IMG/VR virus record: IMGVR_UViG_3300033182_001391
Location: 7,141 to 71,140 of that record
DNA length: 64,000 bases
Strand: one strand, 5' to 3'
Source: a virus
This document shows positions 26,801 through 43,000 of this stretch, one piece after another. The notes beneath the pieces were generated by a model that ran no database searches, was not told the origin of the DNA, and saw only the letters and a list, made by a program, of their open reading frames with translations. The translations under genes and the position numbers were made by a program. The stretch's first letter is position 1. Each line of letters opens with the position of its first letter.

Positions 26801-29800
26801 TCCCTAGGCTCAGAAAGCCACATACCAGTGTTTATACCGCCATCAATTTTTCCACTATCACCCTTTTTATTAGTGCTATTAACCATTGCACCAAGCTCTA
26901 TTGCATCAGACTGAGCTGTTACTGTTACTATTTCTCCCTGCTCAACACTTGTAATTATTCCATTAAAAAGAGTATTTAATGAATTAGGATTAGAACCATA
27001 TCCAGCTCTTAGATGAACTCTAACACCAGGCTTTAACCTTATATTGTTAATATCGACTACATATTCATGCCTCATGTGCCCCAGCATATTTCGAGACATA
27101 TTTAAAGTTCTTTCAACTATATTAGCTAAACCCTCAGTCAAAGATAATTCATCTTGATTAAATTCGTCTAAATTAGGATTGAATATCTTACTTGACTCAG
27201 GTCTAGTTATCTTAGAATACATATTAGACAATCTAAGAATTAGAGTATCACCCATAATATCTTCAGAAGAAACAACAGAGAAATCTATTATCGACTGCAA
27301 TCCGTAGAAATTATCAAAAAGTTTTACACCAGCAAAATATCCACCCTCATCAATAAGCCACAACATATAAGTAGGGAACGCCCTTAGCATGCGTCCAGAA
27401 ATATCGCGATACGAAGTATCAACCATCATCTTTTCCCAGTGACGATACTCATCACCGTCATATGCGTTTTGATACTCTGACACACCCTTAAGAGTTGCTA
27501 TGCCGCTGTTAACGGTAGTGTTTCCGGTGTCAGGAGTCTGAACATCTTGAGTTAGATTTGGTCTTAAAGAATACCTTCTGTCTTCAGATGATATTTGAAC
27601 ATTACTGCCTGCAACCGTCAGATAAAATCTTCCATTATTATTATCTATATAACCAAAATGTGTACCGGCTGCTGTCAACATCATGGCTGAAATCTTGTTT
27701 TCATCTAACTGGGTTTGATCATTAGCGGGAATAACCAAAATAACTTTATGGAAATCTACGTTATCAGGATGAAAACTAACGTACTCTTCATCTGGTAAAC
27801 TGTAGGCACCCTCTAATGCGGCTTCTAAAGATTCTTTCATGTGATAATCAGTACCGGTAGATAGGTCACCAACAATAAAGGAACCAACACCAGAAACTTC
27901 ATTCATAAACGGATTATTCTCATCATCTTCTTCTTCAGCAAAGTTGATGAACGACGTTAAAAGCTGCCACTTTTCAACATTATTATAACCAGGAATTGTA
28001 GAGCCAAGAACTAGCTCAAAAGCTCTTATGAACTTAGCCTGAGTAATCCCCTCTTCTTTAACATAATCAACAAGAAGCTTAATAATTAATTGTCTTTTTT
28101 CTTCTGCGCTTAAACTAGGTAGATCTGCAGACATCAAATTCTTAATCCTATCTGCAATGGCTGTTATAGGAAGATTCTGTCCATCCATTTCATAATTCCA
28201 CGATGTTCCATCCCAACCAACTTGAACTTCTTCATCGTCAAAAAAGAAATCCGTAACCCTAGGAATTTCATTAGTTATATTATTAGTGACATCATCGTCA
28301 AACATCTCAAAACTTCTAAAATAGAAATCTGGATCTAGATGACCAACAGTTTCTCCAGAAGAATCTTTTAACTGTAAAGGTAAATCGGGGTAGGCATTGA
28401 AGGCACCCCACATTTGCTTAATTCTTAAAAATGGATTTTTCTTAGTTGTAAACTGCTCGACCATATCCTTCTGCTGTTTACTACTTAACTCTTCTCTCTT
28501 TTGCTGGAAAATGTCAAAATCAACAAGAGTAAGATTTACATCATAGACATGAGGAAAACCAGGTTTTGTAGAAACCTGATAGTTCATAGGCATTACATAC
28601 TTCATGCCAGACAAAGCTGTTATAACATTTTTAATACCAAGAAAACCTATAACACCTGTTGCATGCTCCAGTCTTGCGAGAGCTGTAATATGATCAAAAA
28701 TTCTTTTAAACTTTACAAGTTCTTTCTCACCAATAACTGTCATAGAAATATTAATAAAGCTATCTTTACCGCCGATATGCTGATAAGAAGGTTCGTCTTG
28801 CATCTGAACCTGAAGCTTTGCAAAGTTATTAGAAAGAGAAACAGTTACACCATTAACTATTACGGCATCAGGGTCCATGTCGACCTTAACCATTGGAACT
28901 TCCCATTCGTTAAAAGTATAGTTACCAACCCTGGCCCTAGCAGCCTCCATTAAAGACTGAATACTTCCACTCTTAAAGAAGTTCTCGTAAAGGTAAACAT
29001 TAAAAGATTTCTTAAACTCTTCCTCTATCGAAGTTATGTCAGGATGAATTCCGTTTCTATTATAGAAATCGCTGGCGGCATCATCGACCAACTTATCCAA
29101 GAGAGAAGTAGGGTTCTTGGAGAAATCTGAGAAAAACTTTTTTACACCATTTAAATTCATATTTACAGAATCAGGTGCGACACCAACTGAAAGAACTTTG
29201 CCGCCAAAGAAATATGGACCTATCTCACCAGGATACTGACTGAAATCGTTATCATAAGATCTTAACCATTCCTCAATTTCCTCCCTGTCTGCCTGGCTAT
29301 TAGGAAGCCTTGCACTATTCTCGGATATAAAATCTTCAACTAAGAAACGATAGACTGCTTCAGAATCACTGTTAGTATTAATTCCTGCAGTTAAAACATT
29401 TATAGAATCTGTAACTAAACTATATATATCTTTGCTATACTCATTAGATCTAGATAAATCAACAACCTGGTTTAATTTAATTCCATACTTTGAACTTTCA
29501 TTGATATCAATATCAAAGAACTTAAGTAATTCGCGCCAAGTAGTCTCACCTAAATCACTAAAGGTTTCTTCCTGAGTCGTTCTAAATGAAGCTGTATCTG
29601 GAAGAAACAGCTTTGTTTGAACTTCGGCTGGAGTATAGAAAGTAATATTATTACCATTTCTCCATTCATCAATTATATTTGTTTCTAAAATGTAGTCCCT
29701 ATAAGAATCTGTAACCGTTTCGTTTTCATAGTCAGTACTGTAGGCGGCATCAGAAGGTGGCAAGGAAACATACTCCCTATCATTGAGCCCCACATACGCC

Positions 29801-31815
29801 GCATCACCGGGTGGCAAGGAAATGTAAGAGTCAGTTTCATTTACCGTATCTTGCTCTTTTGAATCCGATGTCTTAAGTAGGAATTCTTCATTAACATATT
29901 TATGTAATATGTTGGCGGCTTTACCTATATACTGACGATACTTACCCCAATGAACAGACTGATTGAAGTCTCTTAACATTGGTAGAAATGGCTTATGATT
30001 AAAATTCAGTAGTTCTATATCTACAGCCAGAGCAAACGGGAACCCTGGAACGGTAGATATTGTCATGTTAGACAGAGCCACACCGGTTATTCCATGAATA
30101 CTATTTAGGTAATGATTTTTTATTGGAAGAATAGGAGAAAACTTAAAGGCGGCAACTAAGCCCCTAAGAGAAGACAAAAATTTATCTATCTTTTCTTCAC
30201 TATCACCAATTATTCTATTTCCATTTTCATCTTCTCTATATCTAAAATCTATCTCAAAATTTTCGTTTAAATTTATTTGAGATATACCATCTATAGAAAC
30301 ACCCCATATTTCCTGATAGTTAGGAAAGAAAAGCCTCATAGAGACAACGGTTTCTCTGTAACCTGAATTAAATTTTGGGCTATTAGTTTGACGTATTGCA
30401 CCACCAGTTAAACTACCAGTCTTAAATCTGGTATTAACATTTATATTTACAGGTGGCACATAGAAATTAGCTGCACCTAAACGCAAATGGAAAATATCTG
30501 GATTATTAGGAGCAATATTCTTTCTATAAGGCGATCTTTCAAGAACTTTTTTAATTCTACTAGCTGTCGTATCAAACTCAAAAGCTAACTCAAAAACATT
30601 TTTATTACTCTCATCTGTTTGCTTTACACCAAAAGCAGCCTCTAAAGTTTCCTTAAACTCTTGAGCCGTTTCCGCAACCAAACCCCCACCAAGACCATCA
30701 TTAGAATAATCAACTATAGTCGACAATGCCATAGCATAAAAATCTACTAAACTAGGAAAGTAATAGTTTATTGAGGCAAATATAATTGGATTATTATTCC
30801 AATTCTTATGAACATCTATCAATTTCATTAACCAAGGTAAATCTACCGATGGGTCAATATATTCAGAAGAATTCTGTTGCGCATCATAAACACTAACAAA
30901 CCTCTTCTTAGCGAACTCGCCTATTTCATAAGCGTAACTTGCCAATTGAAATAAGCCTGTCTCTACTAAATTTGAATACAAAGATTTAGCCATAGAAACA
31001 TCTAAAGAAGAAACATTGTTATCAATTCTAGAAAAAACTCTATAAAAATTCCCAAGATTAGAAGGAGCGCTTCTTGCCGGAGAAAAAGAATCTGAAACAA
31101 ATTTATTTAAAGCTAGATCTGATCTAACACCATCTTCTTCGGTACCCAATATTGCTTTGTTTAAAAAAGTTCTTAGAGGCCCAAGATCATTTAACGTCTC
31201 TACAAAATCTGACCCCTCATCAATTGCCTCCTGCCTATCTTCAGATGCTACAACATTTTCTATTTGAGATAAATTATCTTTATTTAAATTCCCCTCATCG
31301 TGCAAAGCTTTTGCATTTTGCAATCTTTTAAGACACTGTTGAGAAAAGAAATCAATACACTTTTCATCCAATAACCAATTATAGCTAGCAAAAAGATCTA
31401 GCAATATCTCCGCATCGTTGCTCTGATCAAAAACACCAGATAGAGAAGGATAAACTATCCTGTCACTATCGTAAGAGAAAAAGCCCTGACCATATCTATC
31501 AACTAATGAATCGACCCTGCCTACGTATAAGTCATAGTAGGTTACTACATCAAAGTCAGCTCCCGCCTGAATATCTACATCGCCTCTAGCTCCACTAACA
31601 AAAAGTGCAAACATACTACTCCAAGTTACGTAGGAGTAAGAATCATCATACGAAAATTGAACTATTAATTTTCTTCCAACACTTTCATGAAAATAATCTT
31701 TTACGCCCTGAGCATTCGAGTTAGAGTTAGACAGAATATCAACAACTCTTTGATATTCGCTGTCATTTTCAACAATATATTTAATTTCATCAAAGGCATC
31801 GTTTGAAATTGACAT
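20812..31815 (-). CDS. Giant baseplate hub protein (gp27/gpD-like) with C-terminal staphylococcal-nuclease-like domain (3667 aa)
   Basis: Hub motifs LKPGVRVHLRAGYGSN..LFNGIITSV and GELLVIGNPDIRPHD..GLFEVEQVVHHF..GFVTAITP; SNase motifs VVDVVDGDTIKV, IRFDGINTEE, DQFDRTIA. Confidence 0.78.
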   Translation of the reverse strand: MSISNDAFDEIKYIVENDSEYQRVVDILSNSNSNAQGVKDYFHESVGRKLIVQFSYDDSYSYVTWSSMFALFVSGARGDVDIQAGADFDVVTYYDLYVGRVDSLVDRYGQGFFSYDSDRIVYPSLSGVFDQSNDAEILLDLFASYNWLLDEKCIDFFSQQCLKRLQNAKALHDEGNLNKDNLSQIENVVASEDRQEAIDEGSDFVETLNDLGPLRTFLNKAILGTEEDGVRSDLALNKFVSDSFSPARSAPSNLGNFYRVFSRIDNNVSSLDVSMAKSLYSNLVETGLFQLASYAYEIGEFAKKRFVSVYDAQQNSSEYIDPSVDLPWLMKLIDVHKNWNNNPIIFASINYYFPSLVDFYAMALSTIVDYSNDGLGGGLVAETAQEFKETLEAAFGVKQTDESNKNVFELAFEFDTTASRIKKVLERSPYRKNIAPNNPDIFHLRLGAANFYVPPVNINVNTRFKTGSLTGGAIRQTNSPKFNSGYRETVVSMRLFFPNYQEIWGVSIDGISQINLNENFEIDFRYREDENGNRIIGDSEEKIDKFLSSLRGLVAAFKFSPILPIKNHYLNSIHGITGVALSNMTISTVPGFPFALAVDIELLNFNHKPFLPMLRDFNQSVHWGKYRQYIGKAANILHKYVNEEFLLKTSDSKEQDTVNETDSYISLPPGDAAYVGLNDREYVSLPPSDAAYSTDYENETVTDSYRDYILETNIIDEWRNGNNITFYTPAEVQTKLFLPDTASFRTTQEETFSDLGETTWRELLKFFDIDINESSKYGIKLNQVVDLSRSNEYSKDIYSLVTDSINVLTAGINTNSDSEAVYRFLVEDFISENSARLPNSQADREEIEEWLRSYDNDFSQYPGEIGPYFFGGKVLSVGVAPDSVNMNLNGVKKFFSDFSKNPTSLLDKLVDDAASDFYNRNGIHPDITSIEEEFKKSFNVYLYENFFKSGSIQSLMEAARARVGNYTFNEWEVPMVKVDMDPDAVIVNGVTVSLSNNFAKLQVQMQDEPSYQHIGGKDSFINISMTVIGEKELVKFKRIFDHITALARLEHATGVIGFLGIKNVITALSGMKYVMPMNYQVSTKPGFPHVYDVNLTLVDFDIFQQKREELSSKQQKDMVEQFTTKKNPFLRIKQMWGAFNAYPDLPLQLKDSSGETVGHLDPDFYFRSFEMFDDDVTNNITNEIPRVTDFFFDDEEVQVGWDGTSWNYEMDGQNLPITAIADRIKNLMSADLPSLSAEEKRQLIIKLLVDYVKEEGITQAKFIRAFELVLGSTIPGYNNVEKWQLLTSFINFAEEEDDENNPFMNEVSGVGSFIVGDLSTGTDYHMKESLEAALEGAYSLPDEEYVSFHPDNVDFHKVILVIPANDQTQLDENKISAMMLTAAGTHFGYIDNNNGRFYLTVAGSNVQISSEDRRYSLRPNLTQDVQTPDTGNTTVNSGIATLKGVSEYQNAYDGDEYRHWEKMMVDTSYRDISGRMLRAFPTYMLWLIDEGGYFAGVKLFDNFYGLQSIIDFSVVSSEDIMGDTLILRLSNMYSKITRPESSKIFNPNLDEFNQDELSLTEGLANIVERTLNMSRNMLGHMRHEYVVDINNIRLKPGVRVHLRAGYGSNPNSLNTLFNGIITSVEQGEIVTVTAQSDAIELGAMVNSTNKKGDSGKIDGGINTGMWLSEPRDLMVRLLSMGSSRTREALLRATKGIIFSENRFGIRHFGSILYDFMGDDQVKHDQISSAISGAFNYIGRGKDENNFSSNERSSIIPLIETLMANMQSDVDLELFKRNIYPGNGTGIAQFLGGDIDDGWSTVASLTPEDSNARSVRDLASLTDRSWNRLVMESGQGIPGSNFAVDTLVADNQLNKSPSGDIVTGLLGGGILNTVLGVGTSAFTASATTVVGTLVTRNPVYLGKGVSVGSSLLGILVGRGGKNLFKTMGVISMNDDDDLPGFDEVSFRAQTYMRTVWDLFQTCARLLPNYIVAVRPFEDRSTVFYGKPHWLYTSGVVPVTTGYRVDKAPAARKEDNFLAELLDGLNRSTNPLADYAAFFGASDVNEIFASTAYNINNSTGIYAPTNSLRNKVINFSDPKSLVYYGDSSGNEIVSKIPVSRGNAYIGFHLPIEGKVNIVSEEHRHISNLPDRYRYPFFANTKSVRILKSPAFDMEEDETSYSDNFGKLMEIERDYLKETSQTLIGENDVLELENPLRISMGTNNLLNYLSNTNDIVEMPKPEIDGASEIDTLIASEWGKPASEEDEQFYVAMKWPYNPSSNGGVDLERFKDRYGFDNLYGTASDYKNRKILVYNPINKRAVVCKPAYFLWGELEDSDLNNLSDIDALVSPDAAYYLNIITGWFHGNNFEVGARDAAETVLDAIPFVDVETGVDQFGFRRYPIKRECFFAFVPDSVPVGVVSPQVASAQEFSLRVSDSDEGSEDFLIGFGSFVNSDSDNLYAEKNESGNPVQILNGSFDHNNILDRYLAVETSSLSYLDSYAYSGNGFIDDSSYFEAVIQKRFDVLEFNYLRDIYLTEMESIEGSNSYTEQASKRIVGTFTPVYTEADQLSMEARAFYDENFSPDVSVIAGDGRHLADAQDIWDEFRYSYHTLDSVKQIFADLYGMDPDSEATMPDYILDILRGSQPIDAIRNFSTTGALDKFSLILGDEFIYSGDSSYEYNPTTSSVEYQTSVEEALEFVRTSFIDAPLDQGGLIESLNNFLVKRLQKFKENFFDDPSINNVLQVSIEGSDTEQPSISLASQIDTPKQLFLLMVGMFRQALWNNAYGRAWLVLQPDRKLFGGNSFTDEQWSFRSVDKVFRAFIDPYADYAKGALSSDSGQSKFLKLLVATKAEGNSSNNIISYSVSSVKDFFSENVGPIFTALTTGLSGLYSMFKLSMQQLGYGVSEAADFRKHAHVMNKVLNDSIYYSLGREGSLLRAVDNPFTREYGEPVLEVREPFQRLHYISSFSHILANNIEENLNGVSTVVTAVSDGKYPVTVALDKGAPAERQTEKTVETGLYYDNMVGSGFFGFLHPLMHPLETFRGVAKNIQGSPDELSARRVALAHLKESIKDIYGGELLVIGNPDIRPHDMVYLSDVYERMYGLFEVEQVVHHFTSDLGFVTAITPNALVTVNDPSRWYLSSWISSWMNTQAIRNDARIYLDSIRDGDSSMMIGGSISIDRLSDMLSTQIVGGLQFTHGSSAIVKDAIALETAKSMPDAAEAVIRQTQANTNAAGGAALASIGFGVLAGTVATVATGGAAGLVAGPIVGSLGSQLGWKGWKWVRDNLLDQHGCYVQYLNRNGQPMDSGLSYSQGMVVGQYHSKALLPGILGVRTKIRTPEGYSYVRSDDLFKSLGWRETEIKEAVRYISYENALVHSRVLNLSSLGPDKAQLEPQFKVLVKVVDVVDGDTIKVVDILRGGDPFTIRFDGINTEETNVMEGKVYSEENSESYTLSILDVSTPGGKAKFFVKDKILNKVIVLRVNRSRESLAGTNEDFDAGADYNKPSSYVQDQFDRTIATIFYHFTDDVISQSVSFVSSIFNSLLESGNVNNFVEVKEKYKQKLDDLSVFFMGYDKLYAEVISSLVAENKYNFFENYVPELSELGQQLVENNYVVFDTLVYIKCLESVYETASQWPITLWDEYYEDGTPVTLNWELVVNNLAKVYVKDLQKESMSVVGSYEQAALPRRVD

Positions 31816-31819
31816 TACA

Positions 31820-32254
31820 TCACCTAAACATCATGTTATTGCTAACTATATTATTCATTCTAAAACTAGAAGTATCTTTAGTATGCGCAGAACTATAATT
31901 GTCCATTATACTATAATTTGAGGAAGATTGAAACTTATCAAAAACAAAATTTGCGTTATTGTGAGAAACAATTTCCTTATTATACCTAGCCGTCTGCAAA
32001 GCCTTATTATCATAACCAGTATTATCTGGATTAATTAAAGTACCAGAACTATGCTGCAATCCCTCAAAAGAACCTTTGACAGGATCAGACTTAACTTCTC
32101 TAGCATCATTTCTGGAAGAACTTAACTTAGAACGACCTTGAGCTTGAGATCTAGAAATTTTAGCTGAAAAATTATCTGAATTCTCTTTCCTATGAGATGT
32201 ATCCTTAGGGGTACGTGCAGCTTGGGAAAGTCTTTTATTCTGATCAGCGATCAT
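31820..32254 (-). CDS. Hypothetical basic, S/N-rich protein (144 aa)
   Basis: Fills the gap between two large genes; AAGGAAG upstream of the ATG. Confidence 0.65.
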   Translation of the reverse strand: MIADQNKRLSQAARTPKDTSHRKENSDNFSAKISRSQAQGRSKLSSSRNDAREVKSDPVKGSFEGLQHSSGTLINPDNTGYDNKALQTARYNKEIVSHNNANFVFDKFQSSSNYSIMDNYSSAHTKDTSSFRMNNIVSNNMMFR

Positions 32255-32265
32255 CCAACACTTCC

Positions 32266-35200
32266 TTAGAAGGCTTCCATTATACTACGTAATGGATTTC
32301 GAGAAAAATCTGGAGCTCTATCATACATAGTAGTGTTAATACTAGCATTAGTTAACCCACCAATCTCCGAGTTAAATCTATCCAAATCATCTCGACTACC
32401 ATTAACAGAAACCTGATAACTCATACCAGGCGAATAGCCTTGACCAGAAAAACTACCAATTTCAGGAATCCTAAAAGGATAATCTTCTTCATATGCAGAA
32501 CCGCCAGGAAGCAAAGGCGGGCCCTGCATATCGGCATGAGTCCTATCCTTATACGAAGAATACGCAAAGCTTCCTAAGACCAAAGCCCCTATAGCTAAGC
32601 CGGTATTTCTAATGGGCGCGCTTTTCAAGAATCTTCTAAAATCATCTTCTTTAAGTTTATCCCCAATTCTCTTGTATGCTCTTTCACGAACAGTTCCAAT
32701 GCCCTCAGCTTCATCATCCATAGTCTGAAAAATATCTTTTAAGAAAGAATCATCTGCAACTTGCGATAAATCATCGATAACACCAGCAGTAGTTAAATCG
32801 TCAATAATTCCAGGATCAATTCCACGTACATTAGCCCTACTTCTAATTAAAGTTGCCACCCTATCAGCCTCCGCCCTAGAAGCTGCATCAGCTATTTCCT
32901 CAGACCTTCCCACCATAGACAGTAACACTTCTTCAACTGATTGATCATACATACCAGTAGGCCTGAGGGTTTTCAATAATTGTGCAGCCTGCTTATCTAA
33001 ACGATCCGCTTCAAAATCTCCACCCAACATAAAATTAAGCCTTGATTCCACAGCAGATCCTACACCACCAGATAAATCATCCATACGACTATAATAATTA
33101 GCTCTTCTGATAGATTTTATATCCATAATTCTTTTAGATAACTCAAAGGCATTATCGGGATTTGCTTCATTAAATACTGCACTTAAATTTTCTAAACGAA
33201 ATCTTCTACCATGAGACAGGCGGTCAATTTCATTAACCAAGTCCATCATAGACACACCTCTAACCTTGACGGCTTCAGCCATATCATCTAAAACAGCTCG
33301 GCCATGATACTGCAAGGCGCCAACCTTTTCCATAATTTCCTCTTCAGACAGTGAAGCTGCTACGGAATCAACCCTATTATAAATATTTTCCATAAGATCT
33401 GCATGCTTATCCATGATAGCTTTTGCTGCAGCTTGTGTTTCGGAATTGGCAACAAAGTTAGACAGGGTTTCATCTCTACCTATTCTACCTATAGCAGATC
33501 TTCTGACAGCATCAAACATTTCTTGAGCATTGCTAGCATCGACATTTGCTAAAGATGCGTACTTATTTCCCCTAACCAAGCCAATAGTTCTAGATAAATA
33601 ATCCCTTATATCCTGCTCATTTTTATTTTTAAGAACACTTTTCATTTCCGCTATTCTATTTTGCACCAACGTGGAATCAGCTGTAGCCAAGCCAGCTTTC
33701 TGCATTTCTTCCGCACCAGAAATCATTCCCTCCAAAAGAATCTTTAAATCTTCTCCCTTTATTCTAGTGTTCAACAATATTGAATCAAGTCCAGCACCTA
33801 TGTCTTTAACCTCATCCAAAGTTCCAACTCCACCAATAATCTTACCCAAAGAAGAAATTGCCTTTCTACCAACATCATCTAAAGATCCCATTTGACCAGT
33901 TATTTGATTTACTGCAGCCTCTACACCTTTAACATTTAAACTAAAACCACTCTCAGCAATCGCGCTACCTATCGCAGCATTCATTTGCCTTGATGCGCTA
34001 AAGTTAATTGCATAGTCGATAGCAGACTCCTGTGCCAGCAAACCTATTTGAAAGTTCTCAAGCAAAAACTTTCCTGCTTTTTGATTACTTATTTGCAGAT
34101 TACCTAATATATCTTCATACTGATTTAGAAATGATCCAACAGCCATTGATCTATTTACATATAAACCAAGTATATCTGCTCCAGATTCTTGTGCAGCGCG
34201 CGCAGATTCCTGAAATGCCATACTGAAAATAGCTCTGGCACTAGGGTCGCCTGGAAAAAACTTAGATAATTCCTGCATTGCTAGACCAAAATCTCCACCA
34301 GAAGACTGAAGTATATTTTTCATTCTTGAATAAGAAGAAGCTTTAATGTTATCCTTATTTGCCTCTAAGGCAGACATCATTTCATCTGCCAAACTAAAGG
34401 CACCATTTTCAGACATAATCTTATATATACCCTGTCTCGTATACTTGGCATCATCCTCTAAAACATCCTCAATTCTAAGAGAAGTTGCCCCAAACTTTTT
34501 CATTCTATCAAGAACATTAAACTTTTTAGACAAATCACTAACACGAGTTAATCCTTTTGCCTGTAGCCTTTCATAAACACCTATAATTGCTTGCTCTATA
34601 TCATCAGGAATAGCCTGAATATTTTTAGGTGTACCAGAATACATTCCATAAACTCTTCTCATTTCTGGATCTTCTGCTAAAAGTCTATCTTTTAAATCAG
34701 AACCCAAAACATGCTTTAAGGCCCTAAAACGATCTGCACCTGGAGCGTTCTCTGATATCAATTCATCTAATGCATTAGTAAACTGATCACCACTAAATAA
34801 AGCTTGAATAGTTTCAAAGTCCATGCTCATTCTACCAAAAATAACTTCTTCTGGACCAGAAGGCTGTCTAAAAATATTGAAACCTAATCTTCTAATACCT
34901 TTATCGTCCTCAAAAGTACTGATCTTAGGCAAGCCTTTATCGTCTAGGTCAAAACCACCCAAAGCGTGCCTGACATCGCCAACAACACCTGGGGCAAACA
35001 TCATTTTGTGACCTTTAACCCTAAACTTCACAGCCTCAAAAGGCTCGTACACACCCTTAGTTTTTTCATGCTTAATCAATAGACCATTATTAATATCTTT
35101 TATACCACCAATTTTTTCATATCCGGTACCCAAGATAGGATTAATGTTTTTAGACCCATAAGAAATAGCTTCAGTATCAATAGCAAAACGATAAACATCA

Positions 35201-37089
35201 GGAAGGACTGCTTGAACAAATCCATCCTTTTCCCTGAAGGCTTGAGAAGCCATCATGGAAGCAAGAAGGTTCATCATTTTTGGAGACTGTCTTGGACCAA
35301 CACCGCTACGATGTAACTCTAAAATTTGTCTTGCATACTCTCTATTTCTTAAAGCTGAATACCTTAAATGAGGAGCAATCATATCGACATCTTCACTAGC
35401 AGACTTTTCTAACATTGCTTTTAGCCTTTGTGGCAATACATTATTATCTATAGAGCTTTGAAACTCTGAAATTATGGAATTAATCCTACCCCTTATAGCT
35501 TGCTGAGTTTCAAGGTCTGCAAAATACTCTGGCTGAAAAGCAGTCAAAACAGGGTCAGCATAAACCAGGCCCCTAGATCGTCCCTGCAATATGTCATCTG
35601 CAAGGTCGCCAAAACCGCCCAAAATAAGAGACTCCTGATCACCCATAAGACCAAGGTCATCCTTTAATGAGAACTTACTAATAATCCCAGCGTACTTATT
35701 TAACCTAGGATCTAAATCCGTTATATGAAACGCTGTTTTTACATCACCTCTGCCAGCAATTCTACCTCTACCAGTAATCTGATCACCATGCTTTAATCCT
35801 AGATCTATACTTTTTAATTGCTGATCAATTTCAGCGACTTGTTGTATAGCTTGCTTTTTTGCATCTCCTGTCAAACTCGCAATTCTTCCTTCTAATCTAT
35901 TTCTTTCTGATTGAAGACTATTTCTATAATTCTTTAAATGCCTAGAGTTAAGAACATCTGAACCATCAAAACCATATTCAATAGTTTTAAATATTTGCTC
36001 TACTAATCTGACTTGTTGTTTTATAATTTTTTCACGATCAGCAATATTTTTAAGCTTAGGATCATTCTCAATACTTTTTATCAATTCATTGAATAAATCT
36101 TTACTATTGCCAACACCTTTAGTTATAAGACTATTTATTCTATCTTTAAGCCCATTAGAATCTATATCACTCATATATTTACTTAAGAACTCTGTTGGAT
36201 CAGCTTTAGCGTAATAAATATCAAGATCTCGCTTTAAATTTTGACCAGCAAGCTTTTTCAGCAAATCAAACTGAGGATCAACATATAAAAATGCCTCATT
36301 TAAGTTCTTTGCATTTTTGCCTATAAATCTAGATAATTCACTACCAGCCAAAGAAACCTCACGCTCAGCCAAAAAAGCCCTAGCCCTCTTAGGTATCTTC
36401 ATTAAGGCTTTAGATAGATCTGACGTGCTTCCACTTTTAAGAATATCAGTAAATCTTTGAGAATCCAACATGTCATGACCAGTAACAGAAAGAAGAAGAT
36501 TAGTCTGATAACTATTTAAAAGATTTTTACCAGCCCTAAACTGAACAACACGACCACCCTCGTCATCAACTACAGTTAACCCATGAAGACTACCACGCTC
36601 CCGCATAACCCTAATTCTTTCAGCAATCTGCTTAGCATTAGACTCACCCTTACGAGCATGCATAGTCAATATGTCCATATTGCCATTCTTCACTAATTCA
36701 TCAACATCAATACCTGCATCCCTTAAAAGCTGAAGATCTTGAGAACCGATAGCACCAAGTTGATTAATTACAGAACTAAACATAGCCGCGGCAGCAGAAG
36801 TTTTATTACCGGCAAAAGATCTACCCCTGTTCACCATTTTTGCACGAACTGAAGAAACAGAAGTTAGCTCAGTTAAATTTAAAGGCTGAACCTCCCTTAC
36901 GGCAGAATCAAGATTTGCATGAACCTTGCCCGTAACAGAAGAAATAAACACAACATTGTCACCATCTAGGTCGGCCCTAATAATATTGCCCCTACCATAA
37001 GTAGAGGCACGCAACATAGACTGAGCTGCCATCAACTTTTCGGCAGGAGTCTTATACCTATTGTAATAATCTGTAACTCTAGTTGCCAT
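32266..37089 (-). CDS. Large tape-measure-adjacent virion protein, candidate divergent two-barrel (DPBB) RNA polymerase (1607 aa)
   Basis: The ORF is secure; the function is inferred from motifs GFDGSDVL, QITGRG..GDVK, SKFSLK, MMF..LGGFDLDDK and IFRQPS, plus a C-terminal hydrophobic helix. Confidence 0.5.
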   Translation of the reverse strand: MATRVTDYYNRYKTPAEKLMAAQSMLRASTYGRGNIIRADLDGDNVVFISSVTGKVHANLDSAVREVQPLNLTELTSVSSVRAKMVNRGRSFAGNKTSAAAAMFSSVINQLGAIGSQDLQLLRDAGIDVDELVKNGNMDILTMHARKGESNAKQIAERIRVMRERGSLHGLTVVDDEGGRVVQFRAGKNLLNSYQTNLLLSVTGHDMLDSQRFTDILKSGSTSDLSKALMKIPKRARAFLAEREVSLAGSELSRFIGKNAKNLNEAFLYVDPQFDLLKKLAGQNLKRDLDIYYAKADPTEFLSKYMSDIDSNGLKDRINSLITKGVGNSKDLFNELIKSIENDPKLKNIADREKIIKQQVRLVEQIFKTIEYGFDGSDVLNSRHLKNYRNSLQSERNRLEGRIASLTGDAKKQAIQQVAEIDQQLKSIDLGLKHGDQITGRGRIAGRGDVKTAFHITDLDPRLNKYAGIISKFSLKDDLGLMGDQESLILGGFGDLADDILQGRSRGLVYADPVLTAFQPEYFADLETQQAIRGRINSIISEFQSSIDNNVLPQRLKAMLEKSASEDVDMIAPHLRYSALRNREYARQILELHRSGVGPRQSPKMMNLLASMMASQAFREKDGFVQAVLPDVYRFAIDTEAISYGSKNINPILGTGYEKIGGIKDINNGLLIKHEKTKGVYEPFEAVKFRVKGHKMMFAPGVVGDVRHALGGFDLDDKGLPKISTFEDDKGIRRLGFNIFRQPSGPEEVIFGRMSMDFETIQALFSGDQFTNALDELISENAPGADRFRALKHVLGSDLKDRLLAEDPEMRRVYGMYSGTPKNIQAIPDDIEQAIIGVYERLQAKGLTRVSDLSKKFNVLDRMKKFGATSLRIEDVLEDDAKYTRQGIYKIMSENGAFSLADEMMSALEANKDNIKASSYSRMKNILQSSGGDFGLAMQELSKFFPGDPSARAIFSMAFQESARAAQESGADILGLYVNRSMAVGSFLNQYEDILGNLQISNQKAGKFLLENFQIGLLAQESAIDYAINFSASRQMNAAIGSAIAESGFSLNVKGVEAAVNQITGQMGSLDDVGRKAISSLGKIIGGVGTLDEVKDIGAGLDSILLNTRIKGEDLKILLEGMISGAEEMQKAGLATADSTLVQNRIAEMKSVLKNKNEQDIRDYLSRTIGLVRGNKYASLANVDASNAQEMFDAVRRSAIGRIGRDETLSNFVANSETQAAAKAIMDKHADLMENIYNRVDSVAASLSEEEIMEKVGALQYHGRAVLDDMAEAVKVRGVSMMDLVNEIDRLSHGRRFRLENLSAVFNEANPDNAFELSKRIMDIKSIRRANYYSRMDDLSGGVGSAVESRLNFMLGGDFEADRLDKQAAQLLKTLRPTGMYDQSVEEVLLSMVGRSEEIADAASRAEADRVATLIRSRANVRGIDPGIIDDLTTAGVIDDLSQVADDSFLKDIFQTMDDEAEGIGTVRERAYKRIGDKLKEDDFRRFLKSAPIRNTGLAIGALVLGSFAYSSYKDRTHADMQGPPLLPGGSAYEEDYPFRIPEIGSFSGQGYSPGMSYQVSVNGSRDDLDRFNSEIGGLTNASINTTMYDRAPDFSRNPLRSIMEAF

Positions 37090-40000
37090 TATCCGACTCC
37101 AGCGTAAACATTAACTTGATCGGAACCAAAAGGAGTCATAACAGGAGTGACACTCCCAGACAACCCCATGCTAGACATCATTTGTCTTATATTATCCAAC
37201 ATAGAATTATTTCTGGTCCCACCAAAAATTTCAGGATAAGAAGGGTTAGCTAAATTAGCTTGCTTTATCTGTTGAGGATAGTAACCCATTTGAGACATTT
37301 CTAGACCCATAGACTGACCCATCTTAATCTTAACATGATCTAAATTAGTATTAGGATGCCAACCCTCCCATGACGCATCAGGTAATTCGTGCCTACTGAA
37401 ATACTCTTGTAACTCTGGCCTCTTTTCAACTCTCATACCCCAGGCAGCCTGATAAATTCTTCTCTCCAATCTTCCCGCAGTAGAAAGAATTCTCTCCCTA
37501 TCTTCAACAGGAGCACCTATCATAGCCTTAAAATGCTCTCTCTTTCTTTTCGGAACAGCAAGAGCTAAAGTATCAACATCTCCACCATATATATCTGCAC
37601 CATACATTGTTCTCTTAGCTGCCATTCTAAACTGAACAGCAGCCCTACCATTTCCGGCAGCTTGCGCCTCGGCAGCTAGCTTAGTGTTCTTAACATAATT
37701 TAATATATCAGTATACTCTTCAAGTGCTAATTCCTTTTTTCTTTCTTGCGGAAGAAATCTGTCACCAGTAACTGCCTCTGCTACATTGCCGACCAAAGAA
37801 GCACCAACTCCGACTGCACCGCCAACAACCGAACCAAAAAGCCTAGCCCTAGGAGTTCTAGCAAAAAGTGCACCTGCGGTAGCAAGAGTAGCACCGGCAA
37901 CAACAGGATTTCTCTGAGTAGCCCTATTAACCATCGGCTCAATAAAGCTCTCATAAGGCCTACTCCATTCGGGGAAAGTAGCACCATAAACATTTCTTCT
38001 TTCCCAATCCTCTACCGCATTTCTTTTACCACCAAACTTATGAACTATAAAGTTGTCAGTATGAGCAATGTACTCACCAACTCTACCTAAGGCATACTGC
38101 GTGCCACTTATGCCAAGCTCTTCAGGACTAGAACCCTTATACCTGTAATCTTCAAAATCATATTTTTTAGTTGTAGTCTCAACTTGAGATCTAATATCCT
38201 GGACTCTAATTCTCTCTTCAGGAGAAAGACCCATTTTATCTATCTGTCTATTTAAAGTTTTAAACTGCTTAGAGTAAGGAGCAACATCAGCAAGAATATC
38301 CAACTGATTTACTGGACCATACCTATTAATATTATCGCCATAAAGTTGATTAAATCTTTCATAACCAACTCCAGGCAGTCTTATCTCACCCTCTTGAACT
38401 TTAGTGAAAGGATCACCAGTTTTAAAATTAGTAAAATAATCTGCACCCGGCAAGAAAGGATGCTGCATACCCATAGTGTTAGCTATCGGGTTAATGTAAT
38501 CAATTCCCTTTCTATCTTTGGGAACAAATCTTCTTACAATTTCAGAGAACTCTAAATTTCCTAGAGCATCTCTTGATGGTAAAGGAACGTCACCTAAACC
38601 GCCAAGATTTAAATCCCAGAAAGAACGAGAAGACCCATAAGCTTTAGAGGCAGATTGAAGCACGGATCTCTGCGGCTCAAAATCTCCCTCACCGAAACCA
38701 AAAGCCTCTCTCATAGAAGCAAATCCGAAGCCGTAAATACCAGCCATTTCCTGAATTCTATAACCTATCTCACCAGCCTGATAAGCCAAAGATTCTGGAC
38801 CTATTGGTGCACCCGCAGCAATAAGATTAGGCTGCATAACACCAGAAACCTTAGGTGGACCATAAGAAGCACTAATTAAGCCGGCATTAAAATCAGATAT
38901 ACCAGATCTCACACTTCCTGCCGCAAGGTTTCTGCTTCCAGCATTAGCAGCAAGCGCAGCATTAGTCTGAGAAATACCGAAGCCGCCAACACCACCACCT
39001 ACAGCCGTACCAACAGAAATTGGTGCAGCTCCGGCTATACCGGCGCCGTACCCGAATCCACCAGTTCCAGTAGCCATATAGGCGGAAGCATCAAAAGCAC
39101 CAAACTCTCCTGCTCTAACATAATTAGCAAGTCCTGCGGCGGTTTCCTCTTCGTGCATACGAATTTGTGGCTTGAGAATCTTACCTATAGTCGCATTTGC
39201 TATAGGTGTCATAGGTCCAAAGGGTCCACTAAAATATTCGCCAGTTACAGGATAAGGCCTATCTTCATAATGCTTTCTTTCAAATCTGTAAGGATCTAAA
39301 GGCCTTAAGGGAGAGATGTCATTATAGAATAAAAACTTCTCCATAGGACTTCCATAAGTGTCGCTAGTAAAGAGCGCGCCACCTTGCAGCTTTCTGTACC
39401 AAGAAGGACGATAATACATAACCTTACCGCCCTCAAAAGGAGTATTGCCCAATGGCCAGAATCTACCCTGCCTAATAGGAACTTCACCCTCAACTAGCTG
39501 CTCCTTCTTTTCCGAATATGTCATACCACCAGGAGTAATGCCGGCAGCAAGTGCCTGCCCTTCAACAACACCCCTAGCAATATTTCCCATTATTAAAGGA
39601 GAATAAACTCTCTCACCAGTTTGATCCTCTCCATTAACCATTCCACCCAAAGTTCTATCAACAGTAAAGGCAGTTGTCCCAGCAGCATATAGTGGCAGAA
39701 CTCTCTTACCAACCATTCCTCTAGCAAAAAGATCTAATGGCCCCTTAAAGTCTGATACATCTAACTGCATACCTAAAGTACCGAAATATCTATTCAATCT
39801 CTCAACAGAGTGGGCAACAGGTACAGAGGCACCAGAATACGCTGCTGGATTAGAATATGTATTTATACCCAATGCGCTAGCGATAGCAGCAAATGGATCT
39901 CTACCAAAAGTAGTTCCAAAAGTAGGAACTGCGGTAAAACCGCCAGAGCTGCCTAAGGCATCAACGGATAGATCATCCATCTCATAGGGTGCGACACCAA

Positions 40001-43000
40001 ACCTTCTCTTAAGAGGAGAAATTAATGGAGAGAATTTTTTCCTTATAGAACTGCTGACTTGCCCTATCTCACCCTTTGTAAAGGGATCAAATAACCTTCC
40101 TAATTCAGGAACGGCACCGACATGACTTCTTAACTCAGCTATATTCCTACGGGCATTCAAAGTCCCAGTCGCAGATCCCCTAAAGGTACTAAATGCACTA
40201 ATATTAAATAGTGTTGAAAGACCTGCTGCTTGAGCTTCTGTTCTTTGAGCCGAACTAATAACGCCTCTTGCAACTAAATCATCTACAGCTTTTTGAAGAT
40301 TAGTAAGGTTTGAAATCATATCAACCTTACCCGTCCCGGCATTTAGCATCGGGTTGACTTGAGATATATATCTAAATATTTCGTTCTTTAACTCATCTAA
40401 CCTTGTATTAATAGTTGGAGATTTATCAAACCTTCTAGATACCGCACCAAGGTCTGCATCTTGCAGAATATTTCTTATCCTTGAACCAGATGTCAAAATA
40501 TAATCAGGATCATACCCTGAAGCTCTTAGCTGTTTTGCCACCATAGATTCTGCAGCAAGTATGTCTTCAGCAAAAGAAACAACCTGAGATTGAGACTGAA
40601 GATCACTAACCCTTCTACCCAGGTAGCTAAATGCTTGAGGACTTCTCTTTTCCAACTCCTGAATGACCGGCATAGGTACACCGTACTCAAAAGATCTTCT
40701 TCTTAAAGAGTCATACGCCCTTATTATGTCCTCTTCTGCAAAATCATCTAAACCAAGTTGTCTCGAACCATACTTTACTCTTTCACCCTTAAGAAGTTTA
40801 GATAGAACAACTGGGTTTCCAGGATCATAAGATCTTCTATTGAATCTTGATGCAAGACCAAAAAGAGAATTAGGCTGCTCAGAATCTATACTTAAACGCC
40901 TCTTAAATCTAAGCGCATTTTCTTCACCAAGAATCTTATTTAAAAATCTAGATCCACTATTGCCCTTAATCTGATCTATGGTCTCACCCTCCATGCCTGA
41001 GGCAAGACGGGCCTGCCTAGAGAGTAGGTCTGCAGAATTAGTTGGAACACCTCTGTAAGCTCCCTCTAAAGTTCTGCCAAAAACAGCTCCAGACATTTGA
41101 TCTTTTTCATACGCAATTATATTACCTTTTGTTCCACCCTTCTTAAACCATATACCAAAATCTCCCCTACTCTGACCACCCAAGAATGGCTGAACATCTC
41201 TACCAGACATATATTGAACAGGAGACCTTCTAGCCATCTCGCTGAAAGATCTATAACCAAAGAGATCAGCCGGATTAAAACCTAAAATTGGAATCTGAAA
41301 CTCTGACGCAAAAAAGTTAGCAGTTCTGCTAAAGGTAGACTTTACTGCAGTAAAGTCTAAAAGCTTGCCGCTAGCGGTTTTATATACTCCGTCTAATTTT
41401 GAAAAACCTATACTACTAGATACTGGATCGTCAAGAGCCTGTCTAACAGCTAGCTGGTTAACTATCTTTTGCTCCTGAGGACGCATATGCTTAAAGAATC
41501 CGCGTGACTGCGCCTCGTTTACAGTAACCGACTGAAGGCCAAAAAGATTAAAACCTCCACCCATAACACCAGAAGTCATCTGACGATTCTTAATTAAAAA
41601 TGCTCTAAGATCAACAAAATTATTAGGATCAAAACCCTTATTAGCCAAAGCTTTATTAACAACATCATCCGCCACCAAAGAACCATCAGACTTCTTCAAA
41701 GGCACACCGAGAACCTGAGCGGTTTTTCTCTGAAGGAACTGTTGCTTAGCCGCAGAAAGATTATGTACACCAACAAAATCTTGATACTGAGCCTTTTGAG
41801 GCCTCATTACTGTACTAGCTATATCTGCTAAATCATTGCGATGAAAAGTGTTCCAATTTTTCTCAATAGAATTCTTTAAATTCTTTTGAAAATCAGCGGA
41901 TAGATAAACACCTTTGGCGTCTTCTATTGCATTAAGAAGAGCCTTATTGGCATCTTGGCCAAGAGCAGCTTCTACTGCACTACCATTTTTAATTCCTCTA
42001 TATCTCTTTAATATAGTAGAAGCGAAATCTTCAGCTATTTCCTGTTCAGTTGATCCAGCTCCATATATTTTAGTCTTACCAATGGAAACAATATTTGTTG
42101 CATTTGATCCAGGCTTAGGAACATTTACCTTAAGGTAGTCAACAAACTGGCGTGCGTCTGTTTTACCAACACCGGTAGAAATTAATTGCTGCTCAATAAG
42201 ATCCTTAAATGCATCTCTTTTTTGCCCCATGGCAAAATCGCTAACAGCAAAAGGCTTATCTCCAGGACCACCAGCACCCAAAACTCTTAACCCAGTAGCA
42301 AGGTCGGAAATCCTACTCTTATGTTGAGATTGTATTTTATTTATAGAACTTAAAAGATCATCTGAACTACTGAATATATGTTTTTGCTGCGAAAGAATCC
42401 TATTGAACGCAACAGAATTCTCCATCGCATCATACGCAAAACCTGTCTTTTTAAACTCTTTAGCACCAACCTTAAGGGACTCACCTATACCCCTATAGGC
42501 AGGGATTAAATCTAATATTCCCCTATATGTTTGCTGGCTTGCAGGATCGGTATAACCAAAAACAGTAGCCTTAAAATTAGTTGCCCTAATCTGCCTCTTA
42601 GAAGCTCCAGCAGCCCTAGCTGCCTTCAGGGCATTCTCCCTACCTGCTCTTAAGCTATGTAAAGTTTGAACCAAACCAGTTTGATTAGTAAAAGCATCAG
42701 CAGCAGCGCTCAAAGCGCCAGACGATTGAGCAGACGTTCTCAAGAACTTATCTGTTAAAGTTGCAAAATCATGACCAACTTCTCGCAACAACTCTGTTGT
42801 GTCTATAAAGTTTTCATGCATAACCTTCTTAAAACCGGTTAAACGACGCATGTCGTTAACAGAATAACGAAGAGTATGTAAAGAAGATCTTCCTGCGCTT
42901 GCAGCAGCTCCAGCAAACTCAAACGGCAAGATCATTGTTGCGAGATTAGTTACAGACTGCTTAGTAAAATCAGCTATAACATCTGCAGGGTTATACCATT

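Follow-up and report, generated by a model that had tools for sequence, protein, structure and literature searches.

A putative single-chain two-barrel polymerase with an altered active site, encoded in the tail module of an uncultured phage

The 64,000-nt stretch analyzed here (the window; positions 7,141 to 71,140 of IMG/VR virus record IMGVR_UViG_3300033182_001391) comes from an uncultured phage and carries, on its minus strand, an open reading frame (ORF) of 1607 codons at 32266..37089, whose 1607-amino-acid product we call P0001. We propose that P0001 is a single-chain polymerase of the two-barrel (double-psi β-barrel) type, most likely a DNA-dependent RNA polymerase, which would be produced alongside the tail proteins, travel in the virion and reach the cell along with the DNA, where it would transcribe the earliest phage genes. 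We hold this explanation as a whole with moderate confidence, and its parts with differing confidence. P0001 is probably an active Mg-dependent nucleotide polymerase, as judged from its residues, because an inactive scaffold would not keep such a residue set; we favor activity over a degenerate enzyme. That it serves as a virion-borne DNA-dependent transcriptase for the first phage genes we rate only a little above an even chance. The proposed active site differs from that of other two-barrel enzymes in the spacing of its catalytic aspartates and in the order of its motifs.

Conserved residues and predicted fold

A sequence-only reading of this stretch had picked out eight peptide strings as polymerase-like; all eight occur in the P0001 translation in the order given, and their coordinates had been off by no more than about 30 nt. 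The motifs lie far beyond chance expectation, because they form the conserved core of a protein family. A word-seeded search, which chooses candidates by shared 5-residue words, recovered 113 homologues, all metagenomic, all without an informative name and none with a Pfam domain. A profile search of 1.84 billion representative proteins yielded 234 representatives at E<=0.001, of which 148 reached E<=1e-30. The homologue sets are partly biased toward the motifs, and this profile search is the only one made without a word index. A collection of related loci was gathered with the pattern GGFDLDD itself and thus was not counted as independent evidence of conservation. A tblastn search of 50,697 phage records found no match to P0001, and the ESM Atlas gave no usable one.

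Overall identity to P0001 falls to about 20-25% among the homologues. In a MAFFT alignment of the 113, G711, D714, D716, D717, R741, P743 and E748 are each present in 113/113; D375 and G376 are kept in 107/107, K476 in 109/109, K451 in 106/108, R441 in 103/109, Q437 in 102/109, R634 in 112/113 and H694 in 94/113. The hmmsearch alignment (235 proteins, 240 aligned stretches) gave the same picture: D714, D716, D717, R741, P743 and E748 occur in 231/231, D375 in 202/202, G376 in 201/202, K476 in 214/216, K451 in 209/213, R441 in 204/212 and R634 in 226/232, with lower conservation at R690 (197/231), K718 (210/231) and the Q of RQP (207/231). Residues 701-750 are the best-conserved block of P0001 (mean top-residue share of 0.64 among the 113 homologues).

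To interpret these residues, we compared them with published active sites. Eight residues are listed as invariant in all two-barrel polymerases by Ruprich-Robert & Thuriaux 2010 (PMC2919709); in QDE-1 they are D709, D1007, D1009, D1011, R738, K743, R962 and P964. As described in PMC9508822, QDE-1 D709 and the second-barrel Asp trio coordinate cations A and B; the product and the phosphates of the nucleoside triphosphate (NTP) are bound by Q736, R738, K743 and K767; and R962-x-P964 forms a "Pro-Gate" loop that reads the 2'-OH and the minor groove, with R962 reading the 2'-OH. The metal-B site carries Asp-Gly in the RNA-silencing polymerases termed RDRs, versus Glu-Asp in multisubunit enzymes (PMC8713982). 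The set that is invariant in the P0001 family comprises D375; R441, K451 and K476, together with the less strictly kept Q437; D714, D716 and D717; and R741 and P743. Counted in this way from the alignments, the family appears to keep the same kinds and numbers of residues as the published eight-residue inventory.

Candidate counterparts can be proposed for the residues of the first barrel. D375 supplies the fourth Asp (QDE-1 D709, Rpb2 D837) and lies within about 2 residues of QDE-1 D709 by range arithmetic, given that core residue 5 aligns to QDE-1 700; like the RDRs, P0001 has Asp-Gly (D375-G376) at this putative metal-B site. The first-barrel hairpin carries R441 and K451 (compare QDE-1 R738 and K743; Rpb2 K979 and K987), and the Q437-R441-K451 pattern resembles Q736, R738 and K743 of QDE-1, to which it presumably corresponds. 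K476 would be the counterpart of QDE-1 K767, since the gap from K451 to K476 is 25 residues versus 24 from K743 to K767 in QDE-1. Placing DG, Q..R and the two lysines in the first barrel, as the sequence-only reading had done, was supported.

All structural evidence on P0001 comes from predictions, in which register was read from alignment ends and strand order. AlphaFold2 models were built for residues 140-1140 (86-sequence alignment; predicted local distance difference test score [pLDDT] of 84.4, predicted template modeling score [pTM] of 0.85) and for the core, residues 360-780 (42-sequence alignment; pLDDT of 82.4, pTM of 0.76). In two Foldseek-independent searches of 48,161 PDB chains, two-barrel RNA polymerases ranked first, with alignments 3-4 times longer than that of any unrelated match. 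Six two-barrel enzymes recurred across the structure searches (QDE-1, At and Zm RDR2, gp62, gp96 and gp66), and the best natural PDB matches by Foldseek were phi14:2 gp66 (E 0.051), QDE-1 and RDR2. Among the VIA-align matches listed, gp66 and the multisubunit β and β' chains did not appear. Residues 5-368 of the core model align to QDE-1 700-1025 and residues 3-366 to RDR2 546-842, and the full model aligns to QDE-1 535-1151. The predicted models and the Foldseek-independent searches agree on the two-barrel fold that had been suggested from the motifs, and two double-psi barrels are predicted to form one active-site cleft. Three significant matches in BFVD (E 4.9e-10 to 6.3e-7), all named "Uncharacterized protein [uncultured Caudovirales phage]," show only that relatives exist.

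Outside the barrels, two further elements of the model have possible counterparts in known enzymes. Helix 973-1001 is 29 residues long and strongly conserved among the 113 homologues (G975 in 112/112, N979 in 112/113 and Q990 in 108/113), and it is a candidate bridge helix. D1025 may be equivalent to QDE-1 D1116, a trigger-loop residue that touches the NTP ribose (PMC9508822). The helical hairpin inserted in the first barrel, at 382-434, attracts many coiled-coil matches of 55-65 residues, including GreB, Gfh1 and the arm of seryl-tRNA synthetase.

The metal loop and the displaced R-x-P loop

The metal motif had been read as a noncanonical DLDD, and this holds family-wide. The loop is D-x-D-D in all 231 aligned sequences, with variants that include FDLDD, MDLDD, FDFDD, YDHDD, YDNDD, FDMDD, FDQDD and HDNDD, and DxDxD occurs at this position in no homologue. 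When the last 11 residues are assumed to be ungapped (core residue 366 = RDR2 842), D714, D716 and D717 fall on RDR2 831, 833 and 834, beside 830-DLDGD-834. The simplest reading is that the loop is a DLDGD from which the Gly has been deleted. The sole literal DxDxD of P0001 is a DLDGD near the N terminus, at residues 40-44 (36958-36972, minus strand). It was rejected as the true triad; its aspartates are found in 23/94, 48/74 and 57/93 homologues, and it lies outside the modeled barrels.

The second departure concerns the R-x-P element. In QDE-1 it lies about 45 residues ahead of the triad (962-964 versus 1007-1011; PMC9508822). The sole invariant R-x-P of the P0001 family, R741-Q-P743, lies 24 residues past D717, and the order proposed earlier, with RQP after the metal loop, thus extends to the whole family; the conservation check of DLDD and RQP that had been called for gave an invariant Asp trio, R741 and P743, with variation at the Q. 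Past the triad loop, both models place two successive strands, 718-727/728 and 733-742, with pLDDT values of 85-95, and R741-Q-P743 ends the second of them. If strands 718-728 and 733-742 pair as a hairpin, residue 742 would sit beside 718, which would bring R-x-P next to D717. Because the structural alignments to QDE-1 and RDR2 all end at residue 725-727, ahead of RQP, this hairpin has no counterpart in those structures.

A second arginine has to be considered here. R690-V-K-G-H694 contains an Arg without a Pro and, from strand order in the models, appears to occupy the canonical Pro-Gate position. In our reading, the added hairpin now serves as the Pro-Gate, and the barrel may be strand permuted. 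Alternatively, R690 could be the functional Arg, with a family-specific role for RQP. We rank this below relocation because R741 and P743 are present in 231/231 sequences versus 197/231 for R690, which lacks the Pro. The multisubunit β' chain has H-V-P after NADFDGD, and RQP could merely be its counterpart, in which case R690 would be the true Arg of the Pro-Gate; this we also rank below relocation.

Taken as a working enzyme, P0001 would have a catalytic core at about residues 140-1140, in which an N-terminal domain is followed by the first barrel, the helical connector, the second barrel and a bridge-helix/trigger-loop region. Two Mg ions would be bound by D714, D716 and D717 and by D375 of the Asp-Gly pair. 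The RNA 3' end and the NTP phosphates would be contacted by R441, K451 and K476, and R741-Q-P743 would stand in for the Pro-Gate loop and sense both the ribose and the minor groove. On this view, two features regarded as universal are rewritten: the triad loop would be one residue shorter, and R-x-P would come from a hairpin after the triad, not from a strand before it. Anchoring of P0001 in the tail lumen or at the membrane would fall to the hydrophobic helix near the C terminus and to the conserved domain that follows it. We infer the individual residue roles, activity, template, packaging and promoter use in this scheme.

Tail-module locus and a candidate promoter motif

The gene for P0001 is embedded in an uninterrupted series of minus-strand genes (Table 1). 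The record from which the window is taken is viral, 71,140 bp long and 34% complete by CheckV, which implies a full genome of about 200 kb; relatives rated 97-100% complete by CheckV measure 205-216 kb. In the order of the coding strand, two sheath-like genes, which match PHROG tail-sheath families with E values as low as 6.6e-22, are followed by tube-like and small genes, the 2188-amino-acid gene, P0001, the 144-amino-acid gene and the 3667-amino-acid gene. Beyond the last of these lie a 978-amino-acid protein with weak lysozyme and NlpC/P60 signals and then a Baseplate_J/wedge protein. Because the sheath-like genes and Baseplate_J flank this block, P0001 is placed in the tail module of a contractile-tailed phage, right after the gene in the tape-measure position.

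The proposal that P0001 lies next to the tape measure is plausible. The 2188-amino-acid gene adjoins P0001, its last base being the first base of the P0001 start codon, and is separated from the sheath- and tube-like genes by two small genes; its identity as the tape measure gained no support from families, as it matched neither Pfam nor PHROGs. The arrangement is fixed in all 21 related loci, with a 2188-amino-acid homologue directly upstream of the P0001 gene and a 3667-amino-acid homologue downstream. The P0001 and 2188-amino-acid genes are separate in 21/21 relatives, so that polymerase and tape measure are not one polypeptide. A homologue of the 144-amino-acid gene is found in at least 14 of the 21 loci, in a listing of ORFs of 150 amino acids or more, and this ORF has no family match; the 3667-amino-acid protein has no Pfam match at E<=0.1.

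A role for P0001 as a virion-borne transcriptase is suggested by this fixed place after the tape-measure-position gene, by the precedent of gp96, by the position of gp66 beside giant virion genes and by the lack of a second core copy or of PF00623. In the four relatives rated 97-100% complete, the core profile finds one copy each, and the multisubunit polymerase family PF00623 is found in 0/4, in a search whose control matched in 14/14 genomes. P0001 itself does not match the T7/N4-type RNA_pol model PF00940; the search of the relatives' genomes with PF00940 was uninformative, its control having matched in 0/14.

A k-mer screen of upstream regions in a terminally repeated relative (G003) found TATGACTAG. 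Its 11 exact copies in that genome are all on one strand within 136.9-148.8 kb (loci L091-L092); all 11 stand behind a T-rich tract, most also behind a GC-rich hairpin, and 8/11 lie 43-95 nt ahead of a start codon. The pattern TTTATGNNTAG forms one-directional clusters within 5-12 kb in 8/18 relatives' records (G001, G002, G003, G009, G010, G014, G015 and G016), for example at 115.3-126.0 kb in G002 and 50.5-55.7 kb in G001, whereas reversed-pattern controls gave 0-4 per strand. Since G009 and G010 share identical inter-site spacing and motif variants, the eight cases are probably seven independent ones. The two central bases of TTTATGnnTAG vary by lineage, being mostly AC, GG, GC or CC, and TTTATGACTAG and TTTATGGGTAG are candidate promoter sequences for the G003- and G002-type phages. 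In our judgment, the motif is unlike the sigma-70 -10/-35 pair. It is a candidate for a phage-specific promoter class that fits a phage-specific transcription system, without linking that system to P0001.

In G003, a record of 209.7 kb with a 127-bp terminal repeat (loci L085-L095), transcription runs on the minus strand over about 0-130 kb and on the plus strand over about 135-205 kb, and the promoter-like cluster lies at the beginning of the plus-strand block. Among the relatives, the flanking giants (3667 and 2188 amino acids) are far better conserved than the P0001 gene (blastp E = 0, 21/21), and both contain Gly/Ala-rich hydrophobic stretches. Descent of the P0001 C terminus, as a paralogue, from parts of these giants was set aside (best blastp E 0.025).

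Two regions of P0001 outside the catalytic core deserve mention. The hydrophobic helix near the C terminus that had been proposed as a tether is present, at residues 1496-1513, but only moderately hydrophobic (best 19-residue Kyte-Doolittle mean of 1.17, the highest in P0001). The C-terminal domain that follows it, residues 1515-1607, is the most conserved stretch past the active site among the 113 homologues and matches no family in Pfam or PHROGs. About 130 residues ahead of the first barrel, helix 231-243 (36361-36399, minus strand) carries K231 (96/96), K234 (96/96), R235 (96/96) and R243 (95/97), and this basic helix may bind nucleic acid.

Table 1. Features of P0001 and its neighborhood in the window; single numbers mark the first residue and nucleotide of a motif
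Feature	Residues	Nucleotides	Strand	Basis
GFDGSDVL	373	35973	-	P0001 translation
QITGRG	437	35781	-	P0001 translation
GDVKTAF	448	35748	-	P0001 translation
IISKFSLK	469	35685	-	P0001 translation
AVLPDVYRF	627	35211	-	P0001 translation
HKMMF	694	35010	-	P0001 translation
RHALGGFDLDDK	707	34971	-	P0001 translation
FNIFRQPS	737	34881	-	P0001 translation
First barrel (β-like, DPBB-B/DPBB1)	~373-513	35551..35973	-	Strands in both models; QDE-1/RDR2 alignments
Candidate metal-B Asp-Gly	D375-G376	35962..35967	-	D 202/202, G 201/202
Helical hairpin (~53 residues) inserted in first barrel	382-434	35788..35946	-	H23-44 and H49-75 of core model
Basic hairpin	Q437 via R441 to K451	35737..35781	-	Q 102/109; R 204/212; K 209/213
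Second invariant Lys of first barrel	K476	35662..35664	-	214/216
Helical connector between barrels	514-617	35239..35550	-	Helices in both models; G596, P603 conserved
Second barrel (β'-like, DPBB-A/DPBB2) and extra strands	~618-754	34828..35238	-	Strands in both models; R634 226/232
Arg without Pro, strand before helix into metal loop	R690-V-K-G-H694	35008..35022	-	R 197/231; H 94/113
Metal loop (DxDD)	G711-G-F-D714-L-D716-D717-K718	34936..34959	-	Asp trio 231/231; pLDDT block 85
Invariant R-x-P loop past metal loop	R741-Q-P743 ... E748	34846..34869	-	R, P, E 231/231; Q 207/231
Long conserved helix (G975, N979, R980, Q990), candidate bridge helix	973-1001	34087..34173	-	H834-862, full model
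Candidate trigger-loop acidic residue	E1021 ... D1025	34015..34029	-	D1025 108/109
Moderately hydrophobic helix	1496-1513	32551..32604	-	Kyte-Doolittle
Conserved C-terminal domain, GPPLLPGGSAYE onward	1515-1607	32269..32547	-	Mean top-residue share 0.61-0.62
Upstream 2188-amino-acid gene, putative tape measure		37089..43655	-	ORF call; role inferred from position
Downstream 144-amino-acid gene, between P0001 and 3667-amino-acid gene		31820..32254	-	ORF call
Downstream 3667-amino-acid gene, giant tail or hub protein		20812..31815	-	ORF call

Competing explanations and related polymerases

Several results weigh against the proposal that P0001 is a virion-borne two-barrel transcriptase. In sequence comparisons, P0001 matched no Pfam family (E<=1, RdRP PF05183 included) and no PHROG; 0/42 core sequences matched any polymerase family in Pfam at E<=10; the profile, searched against PDB sequences, gave two chance-level matches alone (E 0.64 and 1.8); and hhalign returned probabilities of 0.1-0.2 both with phi14:2 gp66 and with residues 1-1500 of P23-45 gp96. 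With both models, Foldseek gave no PDB match at E<=0.001. Within the active site, the DxDxD Mg signature described as invariant in PMC2919709 is replaced by three carboxylates with a spacing that is one residue off, and no invariant R-x-P precedes the triad; the RQP segment falls outside every alignment to QDE-1 and RDR2, and a clustering of R741 and P743 with the aspartates would follow only from the register of the hairpin. The P0001 gene is broken into 2-3 ORFs in 7/21 relatives (L023, L024, L049, L067, L070, L075 and L076), which could be an artifact of assembly, a genuine break or the result of programmed frameshifting. The one pointer to packaging in the virion is gene position. As for the promoter-like clusters, the other 10/18 relatives' records have none (several are only 48-69% complete), among them the four closest to the window (G005, G006, G017 and G018; 48-63% complete), and the window's own 71-kb record, 34% complete, has 0 forward and 1 reverse occurrence of TTTATGnnTAG and no cluster. 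In L023 and L024, the gene break falls just past both barrels, at about residues 760-785.

The alternative that survives best is a two-barrel enzyme with another job, such as a primase-like or RNA-dependent polymerase, a PolD-like DNA polymerase or a nucleotidyl-transferase whose substrate is the incoming genome, and not a transcriptase that depends on promoters; we consider it unlikely. The nearest structural matches of P0001, QDE-1 and RDR2, are RNA-dependent enzymes, the DG and Q..R signatures match the RDR type, and the changed triad and displaced R-x-P could alter the choice of sugar or template, given that R962 of QDE-1 reads the 2'-OH. Archaeal PolD, moreover, is reportedly a two-barrel fold capable of making DNA. 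However, the phage relatives of known function (gp96, gp64 and gp66) are DNA-dependent transcriptases, promoter-like motif clusters are found in 8/18 relatives, and QDE-1 itself copies DNA too (PMC9508822).

We give still less credence to the idea that P0001 is a catalytically dead polymerase retained for a structural, tape-measure-like or ejection role. Such a role would suit a protein encoded between two giant tail proteins, with a long helical C-terminal half that contains a hydrophobic helix, and it could account for the loss of the canonical DxDxD and for the split genes in 7/21 relatives. Against this, four Asp, three basic residues, R-x-P and E748 are invariant in 202-231 sequences at 25-45% overall identity, and the active-site block 701-750 is the most conserved part of the protein. 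The suggestion in the sequence-only reading that a degenerate polymerase has been reused as a structural protein was therefore not supported, since the catalytic residue types are all invariant down to about 25% identity. That P0001 is not a two-barrel polymerase at all, but a chance arrangement of β-hairpins and helices bearing the motifs of another metal-dependent enzyme, is the least credible explanation and a distinctly improbable one, as six two-barrel enzymes recur while nothing else aligns over comparable lengths, the alignment ends set D375 and the DxDD loop on known catalytic residues, and the invariant residues fit the published eight-residue inventory (PMC2919709).

The proposed transcriptase has known parallels among phages. 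Chaban et al. 2024 (PMC10770324) describe P23-45 gp96 as a virion RNA polymerase that is fused to the tape measure and transcribes pre-early genes from its own promoter, and they group phage, plasmid and RNA-silencing enzymes in a clade of single-chain two-barrel polymerases. In gp96 (paralogues gp64/P74-26 gp62) the polymerase is at the N terminus of the tape measure, whereas P0001 is a separate ORF after a putative tape measure. The Thermus phage P23-45 is a siphovirus, whereas the P0001 phage, with its sheath-like genes, would be contractile tailed. The metal loop of gp96 is a canonical DFDGD at 779-783, in contrast to DLDD, and gp96 has a nonvirion paralogue, whereas a second P0001-type paralogue was not found in the four relatives rated 97-100% complete. 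By hhalign, gp96 and P0001 have no sequence similarity.

The crAss-like phi14:2 gp66 (PDB 6VR4) is, as proposed for P0001, a giant single-chain two-barrel polymerase encoded beside giant structural genes, and it is packaged in the virion. It has a canonical metal motif. Unlike the contractile-tailed P0001 phage, its phage is a podovirus-like crAss phage, and hhalign found nothing between the two proteins. YonO of the Bacillus SPbeta prophage is another single-chain two-barrel phage RNA polymerase (PMC2919709). Neurospora QDE-1 and plant RDR2 (Pfam RdRP PF05183) differ from P0001 in having a triad with Gly, and QDE-1 in having its R-x-P before the triad; they lack the 53-residue coiled-coil hairpin inserted in the first barrel, and they are eukaryotic RNA-silencing polymerases, whereas P0001 is encoded in a phage tail module. 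YonO is not known as a virion or tail-module protein.

P0001 probably works like, and descends from, the clade of single-chain two-barrel polymerases, but it is not an ordinary member, because it lacks DxDxD and an R-x-P before the triad, does not match the Pfam RdRP model and forms a polypeptide separate from the tape measure. The literature yielded no description of a DxDD two-barrel enzyme or of the P0001 family, although the 23 RNA polymerase families in Supplementary Data 3 of Chaban et al. might include it. In its most specific form, the proposal is of a natural RNA polymerase with a DxDD loop and an R-x-P moved past the triad (a strand-permuted barrel), carried in a contractile tail beside the tape measure and initiating from TTTATGnnTAG promoters; we regard this full combination as possible but on balance doubtful.

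Two-barrel polymerases, from bacteria to RNA-silencing enzymes, are considered to share an invariant DxDxD triad and an R-x-P loop ahead of it (PMC2919709). The P0001 family is large (234 representative clusters among 1.84 billion proteins) and appears to keep all of the chemistry while changing its spacing and order. If our interpretation is right, the family would show how much remodeling the most ancient polymerase active site tolerates. Virion-delivered two-barrel polymerases would then be known not only from the Thermus siphovirus and the crAss-like phages but also from widespread uncultured aquatic contractile-tailed phages of about 200 kb, which would gain a candidate early-transcription system comprising an enzyme and a promoter motif. 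The phage studied here may thus carry an unusual transcription enzyme of its own.

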